Shown here one piece after another: positions 15,971 to 53,377 of a stretch of DNA of 64,000 nucleotides. How positions within the stretch are numbered: the stretch's first letter is position 1; each line of letters opens with the position of its first letter. The stretch comes from a virus: IMG/VR virus record IMGVR_UViG_3300037852_000055, positions 1-64,000 of that record. The stretch is one strand, 5' to 3'. A program made the translations under genes and the position numbers. The notes under the pieces were generated by a model. It did not search any database. It saw nothing but the letters and a program-made list of their open reading frames with translations, and had not been told where the DNA came from.

Positions 15971-16321
15971 TTACCAAGTAATTTTCAGAGCGTAAGGTGT
16001 GTATTCTTCAACTTTAAAACCTTTGTCTCTGTAGTGCTTTATTAGGGTCTGGTGGATTATATAATCTGACTCTCCTAACCATATAATAGGGTCACCGCCA
16101 GGGTTAATGTCAGACGGTTCATAAATACTATGGTAGCCCCCTAGAGCTGCTTTTTTAATGTAACCATCAATTCTTCTAGTTAGCTCAGGCCCACGTTTTT
16201 TCCATAAAGTGGCTTCAGCTTTGTCTTCTTTCTTTTTCCTTGCATCATTCCACTGGTTATTTTCCTTGGTAGTTTTTTCTAGCCAATTTTTAGCATGTCC
16301 TCGGGCTTCTAAGGCATTCAT
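15971..16321 (-). CDS. Hypothetical protein
   Basis: ATGA-coupled to recA. Confidence 0.55.
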
Positions 16322-18384
16322 AGTTTCTCCATTGGTAATGCAGGAGTAGAACCTACGGGTTCCTCTGCAAGTGTCTTTACATATTCCTTTATTTTCTTTT
16401 GCAGCTTAGTGATAACCTCTGGACTGTTCCTAAGTGTTTCCTTAAGGTTGTCCAAACCATTTGCAATGCGTTCTCCATCCATCCAGTACCAAGAACCCTT
16501 GGATTCAAACAGGCCATGTTTCGCTGCATATGCAATGGTATCTGCTACCTTATCAAAGCCTGGTTGACGGCCAGCTCCGGGGTACAAAAGGTCAAGCTCA
16601 GCAGTTCTAAAGGGTATACCACCCTTATTCTTTTCAATACGCATGATAAGCTTGTGCCCAACAATGTTTTCTTTAGTGCCTTCCCAAATGGCTTCTCCTC
16701 GGCGTACTTTAATACGACTTGACGCTGCAAATTTCAGGGCACGTCCCCCGGTGGTGGTTTCAGGATTGCCATACATTACCCCAATCTTTTCCCTCACCTG
16801 GTTCAAAAAAACTAAACTGACCATGTTCTTAGAGCACTTACCTACAAGTATACGCATGGCTTGTGCCATCATACGGGCCTGTAGGCCCATATGTGAATTG
16901 TGACAAACAATGTTACCCAAAGCACATACAAAGGTTCCAGCTTTAGTGCTTATGTCATATAAATACTCTGGCCCCTTTACTTCATAAAATGCTCTTATTT
17001 CTGCTGGGTGGTTTTGCAAGCGTTTGGGGGCTTCACTAAGGGTTAGTTGCCACTCCCTCTCTTTAGTTACTACTACATTAGTTTGTATTCCTAAGGAACT
17101 ATTTAGGTATTGTATTCCAGCAATGGCTGGCCACGAAGTGTTAAAGTATTTTCTAGGACCATCGCTAGAATGATTACCGTCCCCTTCCCAAAACCCTGTA
17201 AGAAAAGACTTCTTAACAGTTTCTGTGCCGTTAAGAATAAACAGTGGCACGCATTTTTTTAAAGATAGTTCAGAAATACAAGACTGCATTAGAAAACCTA
17301 AACTAGTGTCAGTGGGGCAGTCCATAGCGTACAGGGCTTTTCTATTGCCTTTAGCCTTATTAACCATGCGTACTGTCCCTTTTATGGAAAAATTATTAAG
17401 TACAAGTGTTTTGCATTTTTCCATTCTGTATTTATCAGTACCACAAACTGAAAACCTATTGCAACCACTAGTTCTTGGGGTAGACCCCTCTGCTACATAC
17501 ATACCTAGAAGCCAGGCAATATCTTCGTTAACTACCGAGCATGTTCCAGATGTAGGAGGCGTTTGTATATCTAGCCTATCAAAAACAGACAGTTCTGCTG
17601 GAGATACTTCCTTTCCATTTATAAATAATGAATGATCTTTTGTTGTCCCTATGTATCCTGTAGAAGTACGAGTGTATACTATGGGTTTATTTTTTACATT
17701 TTTCTTTTTTTGCACACCTAGTAAAGGAACCCATCCCTTGTGGGATAAGACTTCTAACATTGATGTTTTTGTATACCATCCTGTAGCATTTCCTTTGTGG
17801 AATAGGTCACCTATTTGTACTATATTTACGGCTGTGCTTCCTTTTCTTCTGATGTAGACAGGGGTTTCGTAAACCACGCTATCTCCAATGTCCCCTGCCA
17901 ACTCTGCTTCTGGTACTAGGGCAGCTACTGAGTCTACCACGATAAGGCTAACCGCCCCTGTCTCCACCAGCCCATCCACGGCTTGTAAAGCTTGTTCCCC
18001 AGACATTGGTTGTGTAAAAACCAACCTGTCTAGGTTTACCCCTAGGGCTTTTGCATAGTTAGGGTCTAGGGCGTGCTCGGCATCTACATAGGCTGCTAGG
18101 CCCCCTAGCCTTTGCTCCTCAGCTACAATGTGCAGAGCCGTGGTGGTTTTCCCGGCAGACTCTCCACCAAACAGCTCCACAATGCGCCCCCTAGGGATTC
18201 CTCCGAATTGTAAAGCCTCGTAATCAAATGATGGAAGTCCTGTGGGTATACAAGGGATAAGCATAAGTTTTTTACTGTTCAGAAATACCAAGGAGTTTTC
18301 TGTTTTATGTTCCTTGTCCAATTTTTCTGACAAAGCTTTTACAGAGGCCATCTTTTGTTTTTCAGTTAATTCTTCTGTCGGCAT
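16318..18384 (-). CDS. recA: RecA recombinase containing an intein
   Basis: [61 protein letters not shown]. Confidence 0.95.
16897..17880 (-). mobile_element. 328-aa intein with LAGLIDADG homing endonuclease in recA
   Basis: Interrupts GDIGD|SHMG; starts Ser (SVVYETPV), block [14 protein letters not shown] and [10 protein letters not shown], ends CHN followed by Ser. Confidence 0.92.
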
Positions 18385-31697: not shown

Positions 31698-32454
31698 TCG
31701 CAGAGCGTAATTCCTCTATGGGCGCTTGGCCCCGGCTGTCAGGTTGGTCAGGTTTAGACTTAGAGAGAATTGTGTTCATCTGTGAAATGCGCTTATCTTG
31801 GCTGTCAGGTTGGTTATTCATATAATTTCTCCTTAGAAAAACCTTGGGCCACGCCCATTGTAACCCTCCGCATCAACCTTAGGTATAACCAATTCTTCAA
31901 TGCGTAGTGACCTACGAATACGACCAAAATAGTCTGCAATGGTATGCGTAGCTTCACTTGGCCCAGATTGATCCATGAGATAGTGATAGGCTTTCCCTAG
32001 GATACGCAGGGCGTCTAGCTTATTGTAGTGCATTATTTCTCCTTTGTAGTGGCAGAAGCAGTGCCTCGGGCTAACCCTGTGATAAAGTTAAGGGCCAACG
32101 CTTGCCAAAACCCAATCTTTGCTGTGCCAAACAGCACAGTTAAAATCCCAGGTGTAAACAAATAATTGACCACCCATTTAGTAGGGTAAGCAGTAAGCAC
32201 AGAAAGCAAAGCTACTAACCCAATGAATACAACAATTGCTCCCACAGCTTTCAAAAGTGTTTCCATTATTTCTCCTTTGGCTTAAACTGGTCTAATAGCA
32301 CTGTGTTCACAATGCACAAAGCATCGTGGTAATCCCGGCCAATACGCTCTGTTGTCCATTTAGAAAATATGTATCGCCTAACATCTTTTAGAAGTCTTTT
32401 TCCAAGGAATTCTATAGTATCTTGTTCCATTGAATTTTCCTTTGTATCGGTCAT
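31561..32454 (-). other. Four small hypothetical CDS (31561-31821, 31833-32033, 32033-32266 membrane protein, 32266-32454)
   Basis: AAGGAG RBSs and TAATG couplings. Confidence 0.5.
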
Positions 32455-32826
32455 GGGGCTGTTGCCAGCCCCACTCCTTCGCTTTGTCTAGGCAGTTGCC
32501 AAGTCATAGCCCTGATCCCCAATGGGAAACAGGAAGTTAGCTACTCGGCTGATTAGGCCTTTGCTGTAGTTGGCTTTTATTGGTTTACGTGTCCGTTGTA
32601 TTCGCGTGGCCACGTCATTCGCGGCTAGTCCAGTACCCTTTCAACATTGCAATCGAAACTATTTCACGCCCAATAAAGAAGCATAACATAGCTTGTGCAC
32701 ACACCTAGTGACTGGGTTATCGAGGGGATGCAGTTGGGTTTATGCTTCTTTTGGTGGACGTGGCGGTTTCGCAACCGCGTCTTGCAACGGAAAACATACC
32801 TTCATACTAGCGTATTCGTGGGCACC
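32455..32826 (-). ncRNA. ssrA: Circularly permuted (two-piece) tmRNA
   Basis: Minus strand: acceptor piece ..GAC-GCGGT-TGCGAA-ACCGC-CACGTCC-ACCA (3' end 32752); 80-nt intervening segment closed by a 12-bp stem; coding piece starting GGGCGTG-AAATAGTTTCGA (32671). Acceptor stem has G3.U70 and A73. Tag frame 32574-32488 reads ANYSKGLISRVANFLFPIGDQGYDLATA*. Confidence 0.9.
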
Positions 32827-33021
32827 TTACTTTTGCCTAACTCTGTACTGAATCCCTTCGCTTGCTCCGGTTTTCAATGCTTCCTGTGCAGCTTCCTTGG
32901 TTTCAAAGAAACCGGAAATGCTTGAGTTTCCTGAGCGTGTCCACTTGTTACTGCCATCGCTCATCTTGCGTTCCACGATGAATCTCTTAGTGTGCTTACC
33001 CTCTGGTGTACGCGATACCAT
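32827..33021 (-). CDS. Hypothetical protein (paralog of 21781..22065)
   Basis: AAGGAG RBS before ATG 33021; the longer ORF call runs through a structured RNA. Confidence 0.6.
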   Translation of the reverse strand: MVSRTPEGKHTKRFIVERKMSDGSNKWTRSGNSSISGFFETKEAAQEALKTGASEGIQYRVRQK

Positions 33022-33058
33022 AATCTTTGTTTCTCCTTTGTGTTTGAAATGTTGAAGC

Positions 33059-33199
33059 CTCAGGGCTTCCGAAGTGCCGTAGTAACCAGCAGGTTTCCAG
33101 TACAAGATCACTAGGACTAACGGCGTGTTGTTCCTAGTTTGTGAAAACATATACCGTGCAATCCCTTTATCCAGTGTGCGGCACTACGGTAACCCTGAG
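33059..33199 (-). ncRNA. Long-stem-enclosed structured RNA / RNase III-like site
   Basis: 21-nt arms CTCAGGGTTACCGTAGTGCCG / CGGCACTTCGGAAGCCCTGAG; internal ACTAGGA/TCCTAGT hairpin. Confidence 0.55.
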
Positions 33200-43405: not shown

Positions 43406-43777
43406 CTAATACCTCACTCTGGTATCGGTAAATGCCGTGGTCAAAGCTTGGGCAGCATGACGTTTAATGCTGTTCATACATTTTGACAATGCTGGCCCTA
43501 CTTCCATGTGGCACGCACTGAAATCTACAGGTACAGCCATTGTAACCTCGGGCTTGTGCGTTAAAGCTTCAAAACTGTCCTGTGGGTTACTCATGTAGTT
43601 TGCATACCACTCTGGCCAGTTTTCGTCTTTGCCATGAGCCTGTTCGTATACGTGGTGAGCATCAGCGGCCTTACGCATGGCTTGTGCCAATTCATCAACA
43701 GATTCAAATACAACATGCTTATGCCCTGCATGTGCCGAAGGTACGTTGCTTGTAAATTTAGTCAACCAAGTAAACAT
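43406..43777 (-). CDS. Protein with a helical domain like the C-terminus of some glyoxalase-family proteins
   Basis: F.S..ELA.A.R.AA.AH..YE...G.D.NWP.WYA.YM. Confidence 0.55.
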   Translation of the reverse strand: MFTWLTKFTSNVPSAHAGHKHVVFESVDELAQAMRKAADAHHVYEQAHGKDENWPEWYANYMSNPQDSFEALTHKPEVTMAVPVDFSACHMEVGPALSKCMNSIKRHAAQALTTAFTDTRVRY

Positions 43778-43782
43778 AGTTA

Positions 43783-43914
43783 AATGCCCTCCGTCACCTA
43801 GGCATCATAAGGGCTGTGCCTTGTATTGCCATCGTCTGCACGCACTGAGTCAGGGAGAAAACCTAGTTACGCCTAGTGCAGCGGCAACTTGATACCTAGA
43901 TGACGCAGAGCATT
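43783..43914 (-). ncRNA. Long-stem-enclosed RNA / RNase III-like site sequestering an RBS
   Basis: AATGCTCTGCGTCATCTAGGTATCA pairs with TGATGCCTAGGTGACGGAGGGCATT using G.U on the minus strand; the 3' arm holds GGAGGG. Confidence 0.6.
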
Positions 43915-43930
43915 CGCTCTGCGCTAATAG

Positions 43931-45400
43931 TTATTTGTTTCTTAAAATATCAAAAGCTTCTGCTATGCCATGTTTAGCAAAATCATCAGGTAACCCCGCT
44001 GCACGCATAATTTCTTTAGCAAGGTCTACAAACTTATCGTGCCAGAAGTTTGCAGAGTTAACTTGATCATCCACAAGTTTAATCAATTCTTTTCGACTCT
44101 CAAGGAAATACATATCCCCATACTTGAGTCTTCCTTTTTCAGCGGCGAAGTCAAACAGTTGGAAGGCATATTGTTTCTCTGTGAACTTGGTATCAAACAT
44201 AGACTCCTCCTTTAATACTTGCATGGTACAGGCCGTTGCCTGTTGTTCTGTTGCTCCACCAGCTTAAGCACTGGTTCTACATAGTCGCGTGCTACGTCTA
44301 TCTGAGGGTCAAGGTAGGTATCTCGGTAGGTTTTCGAGTCATTGTACGTGAGCACAGCTTTCTTGGTAACACGCACAGGTTTACGCTCAGACCAACGACA
44401 CTCTGCACCTAAGCCTTGTATATCTACAAAACCCCAAGGGGATTTAACAATTACATGCCCCGGTGTTTCTTGTTCATCCAACTCATCCTCAGTGAACAAA
44501 CCATATATCGGCCACTTGGTTTTCTCGTTCATTGCCAAGGCGAAACTGTGGCACTGTCCTCTGGTAAAAACCTTCTCTACTTCTTTGCTAAGAATACCCT
44601 TGGGAATTTGAGTTTCATAGTCTGTTCCAAATACCAAGTAAGTGACATTGCAGTATTCCATGGCTTACTCCTCTGGTGTATTCACGGTTACCTTACCGCG
44701 TTTGCTTGGGGGCAGACACTCGATTAAGTCCCCAAGGGTTAGGTCTTTGATCTTGAGCCTAGGCAATAGGTCACGAAGATCGTAAGGCGTCTGTTGCATC
44801 ACGGCATTGTCTGGGGATGCCCACAGTAGAAACTTGCCATCGTAGGTATACACAGTGCCTATCAGGTCTTGCAAGTGCTCAAGAATTGTCTTAGGCATAA
44901 TGCCCTGTTGCATCCGAGAGTGTATCCACGTTTTCTACCCTTGGGGCTAAGTACATGATCTGCTCAGGCGTAAGTTCCCCAGAGCACGCCTTGAGGTACG
45001 TTGCTTCGTTCATCCATTCCCGGTGGGAATTGTCATAGGACAAACCCTCGGATACCTCTAGTTCAGTGATAAGTGATTCGGCATCGTACACCCCAGAGCC
45101 GCACTCAGAAAAATCAACTCCGGCTCTCACTTAGCACCGCCTTTGGGTAATGCTTTGTACATTTCCTCGGTGAACATAACTTCCCCACGTTTACGCTTGG
45201 GCACAGTCTTGAGTGTTTCCCGGCGCTGCTTGTTGCTCAGTGGTTTCTTCATTGGATTCTCCTTTAATTTCCATCGCTTTGTGTTGTTTGTGTCTTGGGC
45301 AATAACTACCGTCACCTGTTTTCCATAGACAACGGTTTACAGGGCAGAGCTTCCATGGATGATTCAGCTTGTCCTCGGCCACTTTGCTAGCGGTACTCAT
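43931..45400 (-). other. Small hypothetical early CDS (43931-44224, 44212-44661, 44665-44913, 44891-45130, 45127-45315, 45191-45400)
   Basis: Packed ORFs; 44212-44661 has FTRGQCHSFA..H...DI.G pattern. Confidence 0.5.
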
Positions 45401-52586: not shown

Positions 52587-52739
52587 ATCAGCATGATGAA
52601 GTACGACTAAAACGCGCAAAGGAATGGATAAACCAGCAGGAATACGAAGGGAAAAACCTAGAAGAAAACCTTGTAGATACCTTAGTAAAATACGAGCATT
52701 ACTTAATGGAATGTGAAGCAAAGCGTATGAGTGAAAAAT

Positions 52740-52788
52740 AAAAAAGCCCTAGGAAACCTTTAATAGGAATCCTAGGGCTTTTCTTTTG
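52740..52788. terminator. Bidirectional intrinsic terminator
   Basis: AAAAGCCCTAGGA..TCCTAGGGCTTTT between convergent genes. Confidence 0.8.
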
Positions 52789-52816
52789 TTTATTTGGGAA
52801 CTATATACATAACTCC

Positions 52817-53377
52817 CTAAGTACCTACTTTCGGCCCAGTTGTGCCGTCCATCTCGTACCAGACAAATTCCCCATCTTCGCCAATCGGAAAGTGGCCCCC
52901 GCATGTAGTGCAGAATGTGCCGGAGTAAAATGCCGGATCGCGGGCATACGTTTCCGAGATAGACCGACTCATGGTTGTGATCTTCCCGCACTTCAGGTGC
53001 CTATAAGCATCACGGTATGGCCGAACGAAACCCTTGCTTCTTTCTTCAGGACTCAACACCACGTAGCCTTCCTGCTGCCCATCGGCCCGCAGCGTCGTGT
53101 GGCTGCGATCTTCTGGGACAGGTGAGCCATCCGTAAGGATTTGAACGCTGCGATCTACCGGGATTTTCGCGGCTTCCTGTCGTCGCTTTTCGATGATCTC
53201 TTCCTCCGCGCTATGTGCTTTCTGCTGGAGGAGAAAGGCTAGAGCGCGGGCCTGCTCAGGCGAAAATATGATGTGCCCGACACCGTTCTCATCCGGCTGC
53301 AAATCGGGATGATTGACCACCACTTCCCCTGCCCCGTTTGTGCCGACTTCTAGAGTGTTCTTTGCGATCTCCGTCAT
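52817..53377 (-). CDS. GC-rich hypothetical Zn-binding protein flanked by inverted repeats
   Basis: YVVLS.EER.KGFVRP.R..Y.H..CG..T.M..I.ETYAR.P.FY..TFC..C; 22-bp inverted repeats at 52796-52817 and 53400-53421. Confidence 0.7.
   Translation of the reverse strand: MTEIAKNTLEVGTNGAGEVVVNHPDLQPDENGVGHIIFSPEQARALAFLLQQKAHSAEEEIIEKRRQEAAKIPVDRSVQILTDGSPVPEDRSHTTLRADGQQEGYVVLSPEERSKGFVRPYRDAYRHLKCGKITTMSRSISETYARDPAFYSGTFCTTCGGHFPIGEDGEFVWYEMDGTTGPKVGT

Follow-up and report, generated by a model that had tools for sequence, protein, structure and literature searches.

Transfer-messenger RNA (tmRNA) frees stalled ribosomes. Its two-piece form, the product of a permuted ssrA gene, was described in Caulobacter (Keiler et al. 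2000, as cited in PMC9004378). An earlier census of phages knew only one-piece tmRNAs (Hudson et al. 2014). Buchholz et al. 2022 (PMC9004378) then reported a two-piece tmRNA in the OM43 phage Melnitz; across 18,146 phage genomes, they counted 133 unique tmRNAs, of which 53 were two-piece and mostly marine or aquatic. Table S1 of that work includes Caulobacter, Synechococcus, Stenotrophomonas and Streptomyces among the hosts of phages with a permuted form. Here, we analyzed a 64,000-nucleotide stretch of virus DNA (the window), i.e., positions 1 to 64,000 of IMG/VR record IMGVR_UViG_3300037852_000055, which in whole is 100,044 bp long and approximately 90% complete. An earlier note, made from the letters alone, had proposed a permuted tmRNA gene at 32455-32826 on the minus strand of this window. 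We consider it very likely, on comparative sequence grounds, that the locus is a genuine and probably functional permuted ssrA gene, carried by a tailed soil phage of approximately 100 kb whose group's cultured members infect Acidobacteriota. The note had also taken the well-known phage tmRNAs to be one-piece, a premise that fits the census of Hudson et al. 2014 and is outdated in view of the 53 two-piece forms among 133; the phage-borne two-piece tmRNA is already published and the present gene is a further example.

The locus shares several properties with the systems described. Stenotrophomonas and Streptomyces, as hosts, possess a one-piece tmRNA. Streptomyces phage BRock and the Stenotrophomonas phages Mendera, Moby and YB07 (PMC9004378) resemble the window's family in combining a two-piece phage gene with a one-piece host gene, which for the window's family is that of the sampled Acidobacteriota as likely hosts; the host phylum differs, and they are likened by gene form alone. 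Melnitz, the Pelagibacter myophages, Caulobacter phages of the CcrSC type and Synechococcus phage S-CBWM1 (PMC9004378) have, as here, a lytic-type genome that lacks smpB and contains a permuted ssrA gene; this gene lies in the early or replication region, and its transcript is predicted to yield two RNAs that pair with each other. In contrast to these marine and aquatic phages, the window's group comes from soil and is kin to Acidobacteriota phages, its tags are much longer, no glutamine riboswitch was found, and most copies of its gene fall under the default threshold of ARAGORN.

Among bacterial genes, the alphaproteobacterial two-piece tmRNA (RF01849) is alike in gene order, in the encoded CCA, in the joining of its pieces by P2 helices, and in having kept pseudoknot 1 (PK1) while losing the later pseudoknots, whereas the window gene has the T loop UGCGAA instead of the alpha-type GGCNGUA, a tag of 28 amino acids (aa) and a match restricted to the tRNA-like domain. 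The betaproteobacterial model (RF01850) aligns over its full length with many family members, none of which reaches the threshold. The tmRNAs of Bxz1-group mycobacteriophages and the RNA of DS6A, which consists of the tRNA-like domain (TLD) only, are likewise phage-borne, of ssrA type and dependent on host SmpB; they differ in having the standard order or in being cut down to the TLD (PMC4131195). We found no paper connecting tmRNA with phages of Acidobacteriota in the literature.

Gene order and model matches

RF04321, the Rfam model of permuted tmRNA, matched positions 32553-32811 of the minus strand over the full model (1-213) with 64.2 bits (E 4.4e-10 in the 64-kb window). The locus exceeded the gathering score of 47 bits, and its score far exceeds that of a chance match. 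The alphaproteobacterial model alpha_tmRNA (RF01849) was matched at model positions 82-179 only, with 30.2 bits against a gathering threshold of 50. The standard one-piece model RF00023 gave zero matches in the window, and no colinear gene order was found there. Comparison with Rfam models had been suggested in the earlier note, and the RF04321 match supports the proposed gene. ARAGORN with the threshold lowered to 90% (-ps90) reported a low-scoring 'Permuted' tmRNA in the window with the same domains and the same tag frame, ANYSKGLISRVANFLFPIGDQGYDLATA.

Reading of the minus strand over 32300-33000 gave the order acceptor piece, spacer and coding piece; i.e., the T arm, acceptor 3' strand and CCA come first, then the spacer, and then the acceptor 5' strand, the D-loop analogue and the mRNA-like part. 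The gene fills 32455-32826, which is the exact gap between two co-oriented minus-strand open reading frames (ORFs), and every element that the earlier note had listed was found where it had been placed.

Anatomy of the two pieces

All features of the gene lie on the minus strand. In the RF04321 match, the acceptor piece begins at 32811, where the 5' strand of the outer inter-piece helix P2b begins (GCTAGT, 32806-32811); it pairs with ACTAGC (32624-32629) in the coding piece. The true 5' end of the acceptor piece should lie at most 15 nt upstream of 32811, because the stop codon of the upstream ORF is at 32827-32829. The inner helix P2a follows, with its 5' strand CGTTGCAA at 32782-32789 pairing with TTGCAATG at 32645-32652, and then the linker GAC (32781-32779). 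The two P2 helices have 8 bp (P2a) and 6 bp (P2b), and the inter-piece duplex has a free energy (dG) of -35.2 kcal/mol (z -3.4). The T arm (32763-32778; from sequence reading and RF04321) consists of the stem GCGGT/ACCGC and the loop TGCGAA, which has the six nucleotides that had been claimed for it. The acceptor 3' strand CACGTCC (32762-32756) with A73 and the encoded CCA (32755-32752) occupies 32752-32762 and forms the predicted 3' end of the piece, which reads GAC-GCGGT-TGCGAA-ACCGC-CACGTCC-ACCA with its final A at 32752.

The intervening segment (32672-32751, 80 nt) contains no credible ORF and is closed by a perfect 12-bp stem (32751-32740/32686-32675), which begins 0 nt past the CCA and stops 3 nt ahead of G1. 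Its fold was more stable than expected (z -3.3, with 0/200 shuffles as stable; z -4.5 in the family spacer comparison). The coding piece then starts with the acceptor 5' strand GGGCGTG (32665-32671), and RNase P is predicted to cleave at its G1 (32671). GGGCGTG/CACGTCC forms 7 bp with G3 opposite U70, and with A73 and the 3' CCA this constitutes alanine identity, as the earlier note had stated and as sequence reading confirmed. The D-loop analogue AAATAGTTTCGA (32653-32664) has no D stem and carries an AG dinucleotide two bases ahead of UCGA.

PK1 spans 32587-32623, with stem 1 formed by CGCG (32623-32620) and CGCG (32606-32603) and stem 2 by ACGTG (32615-32611) and CACGT (32591-32587); it was read by eye from the sequence and the alignment, without a program, and is positioned 12 nt upstream of the resume codon GCC. 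The tag frame ANYSKGLISRVANFLFPIGDQGYDLATA (32488-32574) was taken from the G-initial codon after the A-rich stretch, which in the copies compared lies 72-98 nt into the coding piece. It begins with GCC at 32574-32572, runs for 28 codons to the stop TAG at 32490-32488 and is open, with a hydrophobic, Ala-rich end; by alignment, its context AAUAAAA-GCC-AAC matches the Rfam consensus. An internal hairpin of 9-of-10 bp lies inside tag codons 14-22. A terminal hairpin without a U tract, GGGGCTG-GCAA-CAGCCCC (32455-32472), is likely the 3' end or a protective stem of the coding piece.

Covariation across the phage group

We compared 28 copies with placeable anchors; 17 copies were aligned with MAFFT, and 21 distinct copies were used for tags. 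The earlier note had named the loss of G3:U70 or of the tag frame in homologous phage loci as evidence against its proposal; G3:U70, A73 and the encoded CCA are kept in 28/28 copies, and the tag frames are open. The acceptor stem is 100% paired in the 17 aligned copies, with the U:G pair invariant (17/17) and compensatory changes at 4:69, 5:68 and 6:67. All five T-stem pairs covary. Compensatory changes occur in 4/5 pairs of P2b (columns 17-21/207-211, 96.5% paired) and in 7/8 pairs of P2a (columns 40-48/181-188), and an inter-piece duplex beginning at the junction of the TLD is present in every copy. RNAalifold alone recovered the acceptor stem, T stem, P2a and P2b from the 17 copies, and 20 of the 26 pairs had changes on both sides. 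Paired cells amounted to 93.9%, as compared with 34-43% when partners were slid by 1-3 columns, and the covariation score was 0.743, which 0/500 shuffles reached, versus at most 0.122 for controls. These data indicate that the structure is under selection across the phage group, and a chance match is excluded by the covariation of the family.

Manual reading extended this pattern to PK1. Stem 1 is compensatory among the window (CGCG/CGCG), G003 (CGTG/CACG) and G018 (CGAG/CTCG), and stem 2 in another subgroup reads GCCTT/GAGGC in G002 versus GCCCT/GGGGC in G013. The D-loop dinucleotide two bases ahead of UCGA, read at a fixed offset from the sequence listing, is GG in copies with T loops starting in UUC; every copy with a UGC, UAGC or GGC loop, that of the window among them, has AG. 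This correlation fits the G18-psi55 elbow contact of tRNAs, which argues that the predicted elbow would form. The spacer shows a conserved geometry without a conserved sequence: a 10-15-bp helix that starts 0-1 nt after the CCA and ends 3-5 nt before G1 is present in 11 of the 14 distinct copies whose spacer is at least 57 nt long.

Distribution in soil phages

A polymerase-profile search of IMG/VR yielded 73 related loci, and 40 of the records were then searched with RF04321. The threshold was exceeded in 22 of the 40. Of the 14 searched records with a completeness of at least 90%, 13 exceeded it; when all searches were pooled, 16/17 related IMG/VR genomes of at least 90% completeness carried an over-threshold gene. 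With few exceptions, the related genomes without an RF04321 match are fragments. The nearest cultured phages by DNA polymerase (PolA) are the Tunturiibacter phages Tunturi 3 (41% identity) and Tunturi 4 (40%), over 99% of the protein; they are Arctic-soil phages of Acidobacteriota (PMC11924767). Both carry the gene. In Tunturi 4 (PP885687.1), it lies at 43532-43941 (minus strand; L004 1501-1910) with 79.2 bits for RF04321 and a predicted tag of 33 aa ending RYAVAA, and in Tunturi 3 (PP885686.1) at 88172-88396 (minus strand; L005 1501-1725) with 63.3 bits and a predicted tag of 29 aa ending ATMLAA. The gene is unannotated in both GenBank records, and the paper that describes these phages never mentions tmRNA and used only tRNAscan-SE (PMC11924767).

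The trait is now seen in a large group of soil phages of approximately 90-110 kb, including two cultured phages of Acidobacteriota, and soil and peat form a second ecological setting beside the marine cases. Cultures of Tunturi 3 and 4 and of their hosts exist, and this system would thus allow genetic tests of what a phage tmRNA does. A practical point concerns detection: ARAGORN in its default settings found just 13/29 family copies.

Likely host and its tmRNA

Two contigs of a Terracidiphilus (Acidobacteriaceae) metagenome-assembled genome (MAG; G050) bear on the host. A 2.3-kb contig, CAZVYV010000568.1 (L032), contains a polymerase fragment 58% identical to the phage family, and a 2.7-kb contig, C496 (L145), carries an alpha-type permuted tmRNA beside five tRNA genes. 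Both look like fragments of a phage of the window's group, and their presence in the MAG would reflect a link to the host or else an error of binning. An Acidobacteriota host is likely for the window phage, because its PolA is akin to those of the Tunturi phages and because of these MAG contigs.

The tmRNA genes of such hosts differ in form from the phage gene. RF00023 was found at 114-195 bits in 57/61 sampled Acidobacteriaceae genomes (55/59 without G052 and G071), and the 14 Acidobacteriota tmRNA genes called by ARAGORN are one-piece, 342-369 nt long, with tags of 8-10 aa (e.g., ANQELAYAA and ANNNLALAA). The two-piece phage gene thus contrasts with the one-piece genes of the sampled Acidobacteriaceae. 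In the tmRNA database, 2144 Acidobacteriota genomes have 1589 standard forms and 0 alpha-, 5 beta- and 0 cyano-permuted forms (PMC11915505, Supplementary Table 2). Among the 151 Acidobacteriota genomes that we sampled, six had a match above the RF04321 threshold, and the only convincing permuted gene was that of the MAG contig L145. A standard tmRNA called by ARAGORN overlaps four of the five other over-threshold matches (L146, L148, L149 and L150); at the fifth (L147), ARAGORN found no standard tmRNA. Standard tmRNAs were also present in 4/4 fetched loci with weaker matches (L151-L154), as presence in the locus and not as overlap. At the 5' end of an ordinary one-piece tmRNA gene, RF04321 can score as high as 58 bits, above its gathering score of 47; therefore, RF04321 alone can over-call such ends, and a permuted call that relies on it can be a false positive.

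Relation to known two-piece lineages

The lineage models were scored under clan competition, in which only the best-scoring model per copy is shown. For the window, RF01850 and the cyanobacterial RF01851 are not listed, since both score below the alpha model within the clan. The RF01849 threshold was passed by the relatives L145 (80.1 bits), L110 (60), L125 (59.9) and L121 (57.9), and L145 aligns to the full alpha model including its flanks. Most other copies fit the beta model RF01850 best, many at full length, with 25-75 bits (best 74.9) against a threshold of 84. The motif GUAUGAAG or GUAGAAGG after the outer helix is common to the phage copies, which suggests that they form one family. The family may have originated by capture from alphaproteobacteria or by a separate permutation, the latter having been considered possible in the earlier note.

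A further-reaching reading, which we hold to be possible and rather unlikely, is that phages propagate a lineage of their own, from a separate permutation or an old capture, and that its approximately three-fold longer tags redirect rescued proteins to a protease or adaptor other than that served by the host tag. If so, the phage would take over the outcome of ribosome rescue in addition to its capacity.

Tags and partners in ribosome rescue

Long tags are the rule in the window's phage group. The 21 distinct copies have open tag frames of 12-37 codons (median 27). The first tag residue is A or V (codon GCN or GUC) and the second is N, T, K, E or D; in most tags, the C-terminal end is hydrophobic and Ala-rich (AVAA, MLAA, LLAA, LVAA, SVAA, SLAA, PVLA, LVLA, LVMA or YASA). 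The C-terminus LATA is common to the window and G043, the tag of which is otherwise different. One subgroup (G001, G002, G003, G013, G015 and G018; L024, L022, L023, L114, L124 and L122) ends in AAAGR, AAACGR or AAAGV, which would not resemble the classical ClpX degron; the resume-region pattern of G001/G002 had zero matches in 185,579 species genomes. Alignment of the 21 tags revealed no convincing internal motif beyond the N-terminal A-N/T/K and the hydrophobic-Ala C-terminus.

The earlier note had reported no smpB in the window, and the absence extends further: SmpB (PF01668) was found neither in the 100-kb record nor in 23 related phage genomes. Bacterial hosts possess SmpB. As the phage group lacks smpB, host SmpB must serve the phage tmRNA.

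Small proteins with an RF-1 domain (open frames of 115-135 aa), possibly ArfB-like ribosome rescue factors, were observed in Tunturi 4 (gp53, 43946-44293; L026 2447-2794), in Tunturi 3 (82616-82783) and, weakly, in G039 (52714-52887). The Tunturi 4 gene sits immediately upstream of the tmRNA gene. No RF-1-domain or ArfB-like protein was found in the window phage. That both cultured relatives encode such a small RF-1-domain protein suggests that ribosome rescue matters to these phages.

Proposed maturation and function

The following scheme draws on the established maturation of tRNA and tmRNA and on trans-translation. A scan found no promoter-like or terminator-like site in or beside the tmRNA gene; it is therefore probable that the RNA is excised from a long transcript of the minus-strand replication genes, within which a tmRNA lacking its own promoter and terminator would be transcribed. 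In the precursor, the 12-bp spacer stem would stack beneath the acceptor stem, as in a pre-tRNA with paired leader and trailer. Host RNase P would cut 5' of G1 (32671), and host 3' trimming would halt at the CCA (32752). The spacer would be freed, and the acceptor piece of at least 60 nt would be held to the coding piece of approximately 217 nt by pairing in the acceptor stem and P2 helices. Host alanyl-tRNA synthetase (AlaRS) would charge the RNA through G3:U70, and host SmpB and EF-Tu would bring it to ribosomes stalled on broken mRNA, where translation would resume at GCC and add the 28-residue tag ending LATA. What the phage gains from this is the least secure part of the scheme; most likely, ribosomes would remain available during the degradation of host and phage mRNAs. 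In addition, the long tag, which is specific to the phage, may change the fate of the rescued proteins.

Alternative explanations

Several observations weigh against a functional gene in this phage. The check by ARAGORN that the earlier note had named held only in part: the permuted call appeared at -ps90, whereas the default settings reported tRNA-His and tRNA-Asn only in the window and missed the tmRNA. The T loop of the window copy (UGCGAA) has 6 nt instead of the usual 7, its 5-bp stem being intact; the tag ends in DLATA, and this ATA is atypical as compared with the canonical AA; and a G-G mismatch lies in one of the helices of the Rfam model (UAUG/GGUA). Exact and degenerate patterns of the window's TLD had no match in IMG/VR, and pattern searches of IMG/VR and the JGI metagenomes yielded no close relative by which selection on the 28-codon tag could be gauged. 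In addition, the host of this phage is one that we infer.

Several of these points would fit a decaying relic, i.e., a once-functional permuted tmRNA that this phage no longer uses; rejection by ARAGORN at default, the 6-nt T loop, the ATA end and the single mismatch would be expected of it, and no near relatives are on hand to reveal selection. We judge this improbable. All elements are intact, namely 7/7 acceptor pairs, 5/5 T-stem pairs, the 8-bp and 6-bp helices, both PK1 stems and the open frame of 28 codons. The odd features also recur: 6-nt T loops are found in G002, G048, G015/G018 and G050, among which are several covarying relatives, and the LATA end is found in G043. The AG of the window's D loop fits its non-UUC T loop, as in like copies, and the gene is retained in 16/17 near-complete relatives.

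Alternatively, the RNA could act as a decoy whose TLD soaks up host SmpB or competes with the host tmRNA, the tag being irrelevant. The phage group, which has no smpB, must share that of the host, its tags are highly diverse, and the TLD-only RNA of mycobacteriophage DS6A provides a precedent for an inhibitor of this type (PMC4131195). However, a pure decoy would have no need of PK1, of an A-rich resume context, of a resume codon that starts with G or of open frames with hydrophobic, Ala-rich ends, and all of these are retained throughout the family, which makes this explanation very improbable. That a host tmRNA fragment was acquired at an integration site (as attP or as a remnant of imprecise excision), or that the tRNA-like match arose by chance, is extremely improbable: tmRNA genes are common integration sites with fragments in prophages (PMC9004378) and RF04321 cross-matches ordinary tmRNA 5' ends at up to 58 bits, but both halves are present here in permuted order with a CCA closing the first, a layout that a fragment of the one-piece genes of the sampled Acidobacteriaceae and Acidobacteriota could not give, and covariation rules out chance. 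A genuine permuted ssrA gene, probably functional, thus accounts best for the locus.

Neighboring genes and further observations

A blastn search of 50,697 phage records with the locus as query gave no match; the sole JGI metagenome match to the TLD patterns of the window (L028) was unrelated by alignment and was rejected; and a flanking protein of 310 aa had no relatives in IMG/VR. The upstream co-oriented ORF (32827-33150, minus strand, 107 aa) has no Pfam or PHROG match and is neither an RF-1-domain protein nor SmpB. The first ATG (32454) of the downstream co-oriented ORF (32266-32454, minus strand) abuts the terminal hairpin of the tmRNA gene. An in-frame ATG at 32430 is preceded by AAGGA; translation probably starts at this second ATG, with AAGGA as the ribosome-binding site, and not at 32454.

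The window further encodes a RecA with a LAGLIDADG insertion, a DnaB-like helicase, a family-A DNA polymerase, a class II ribonucleotide reductase, a ParB-like protein and a thioredoxin-reductase-like protein. In the recA gene (16318-18384, minus strand), RecA domains at residues 20-171 and 617-669 enclose a LAGLIDADG_3 domain at 391-445, consistent with an intein. In the relative G002 (L022 1893-2058), a tRNA model match extends across 166 nt approximately 125 nt downstream of the tmRNA gene; this is probably a tRNA gene carrying an insertion of approximately 95 nt, possibly an intron.

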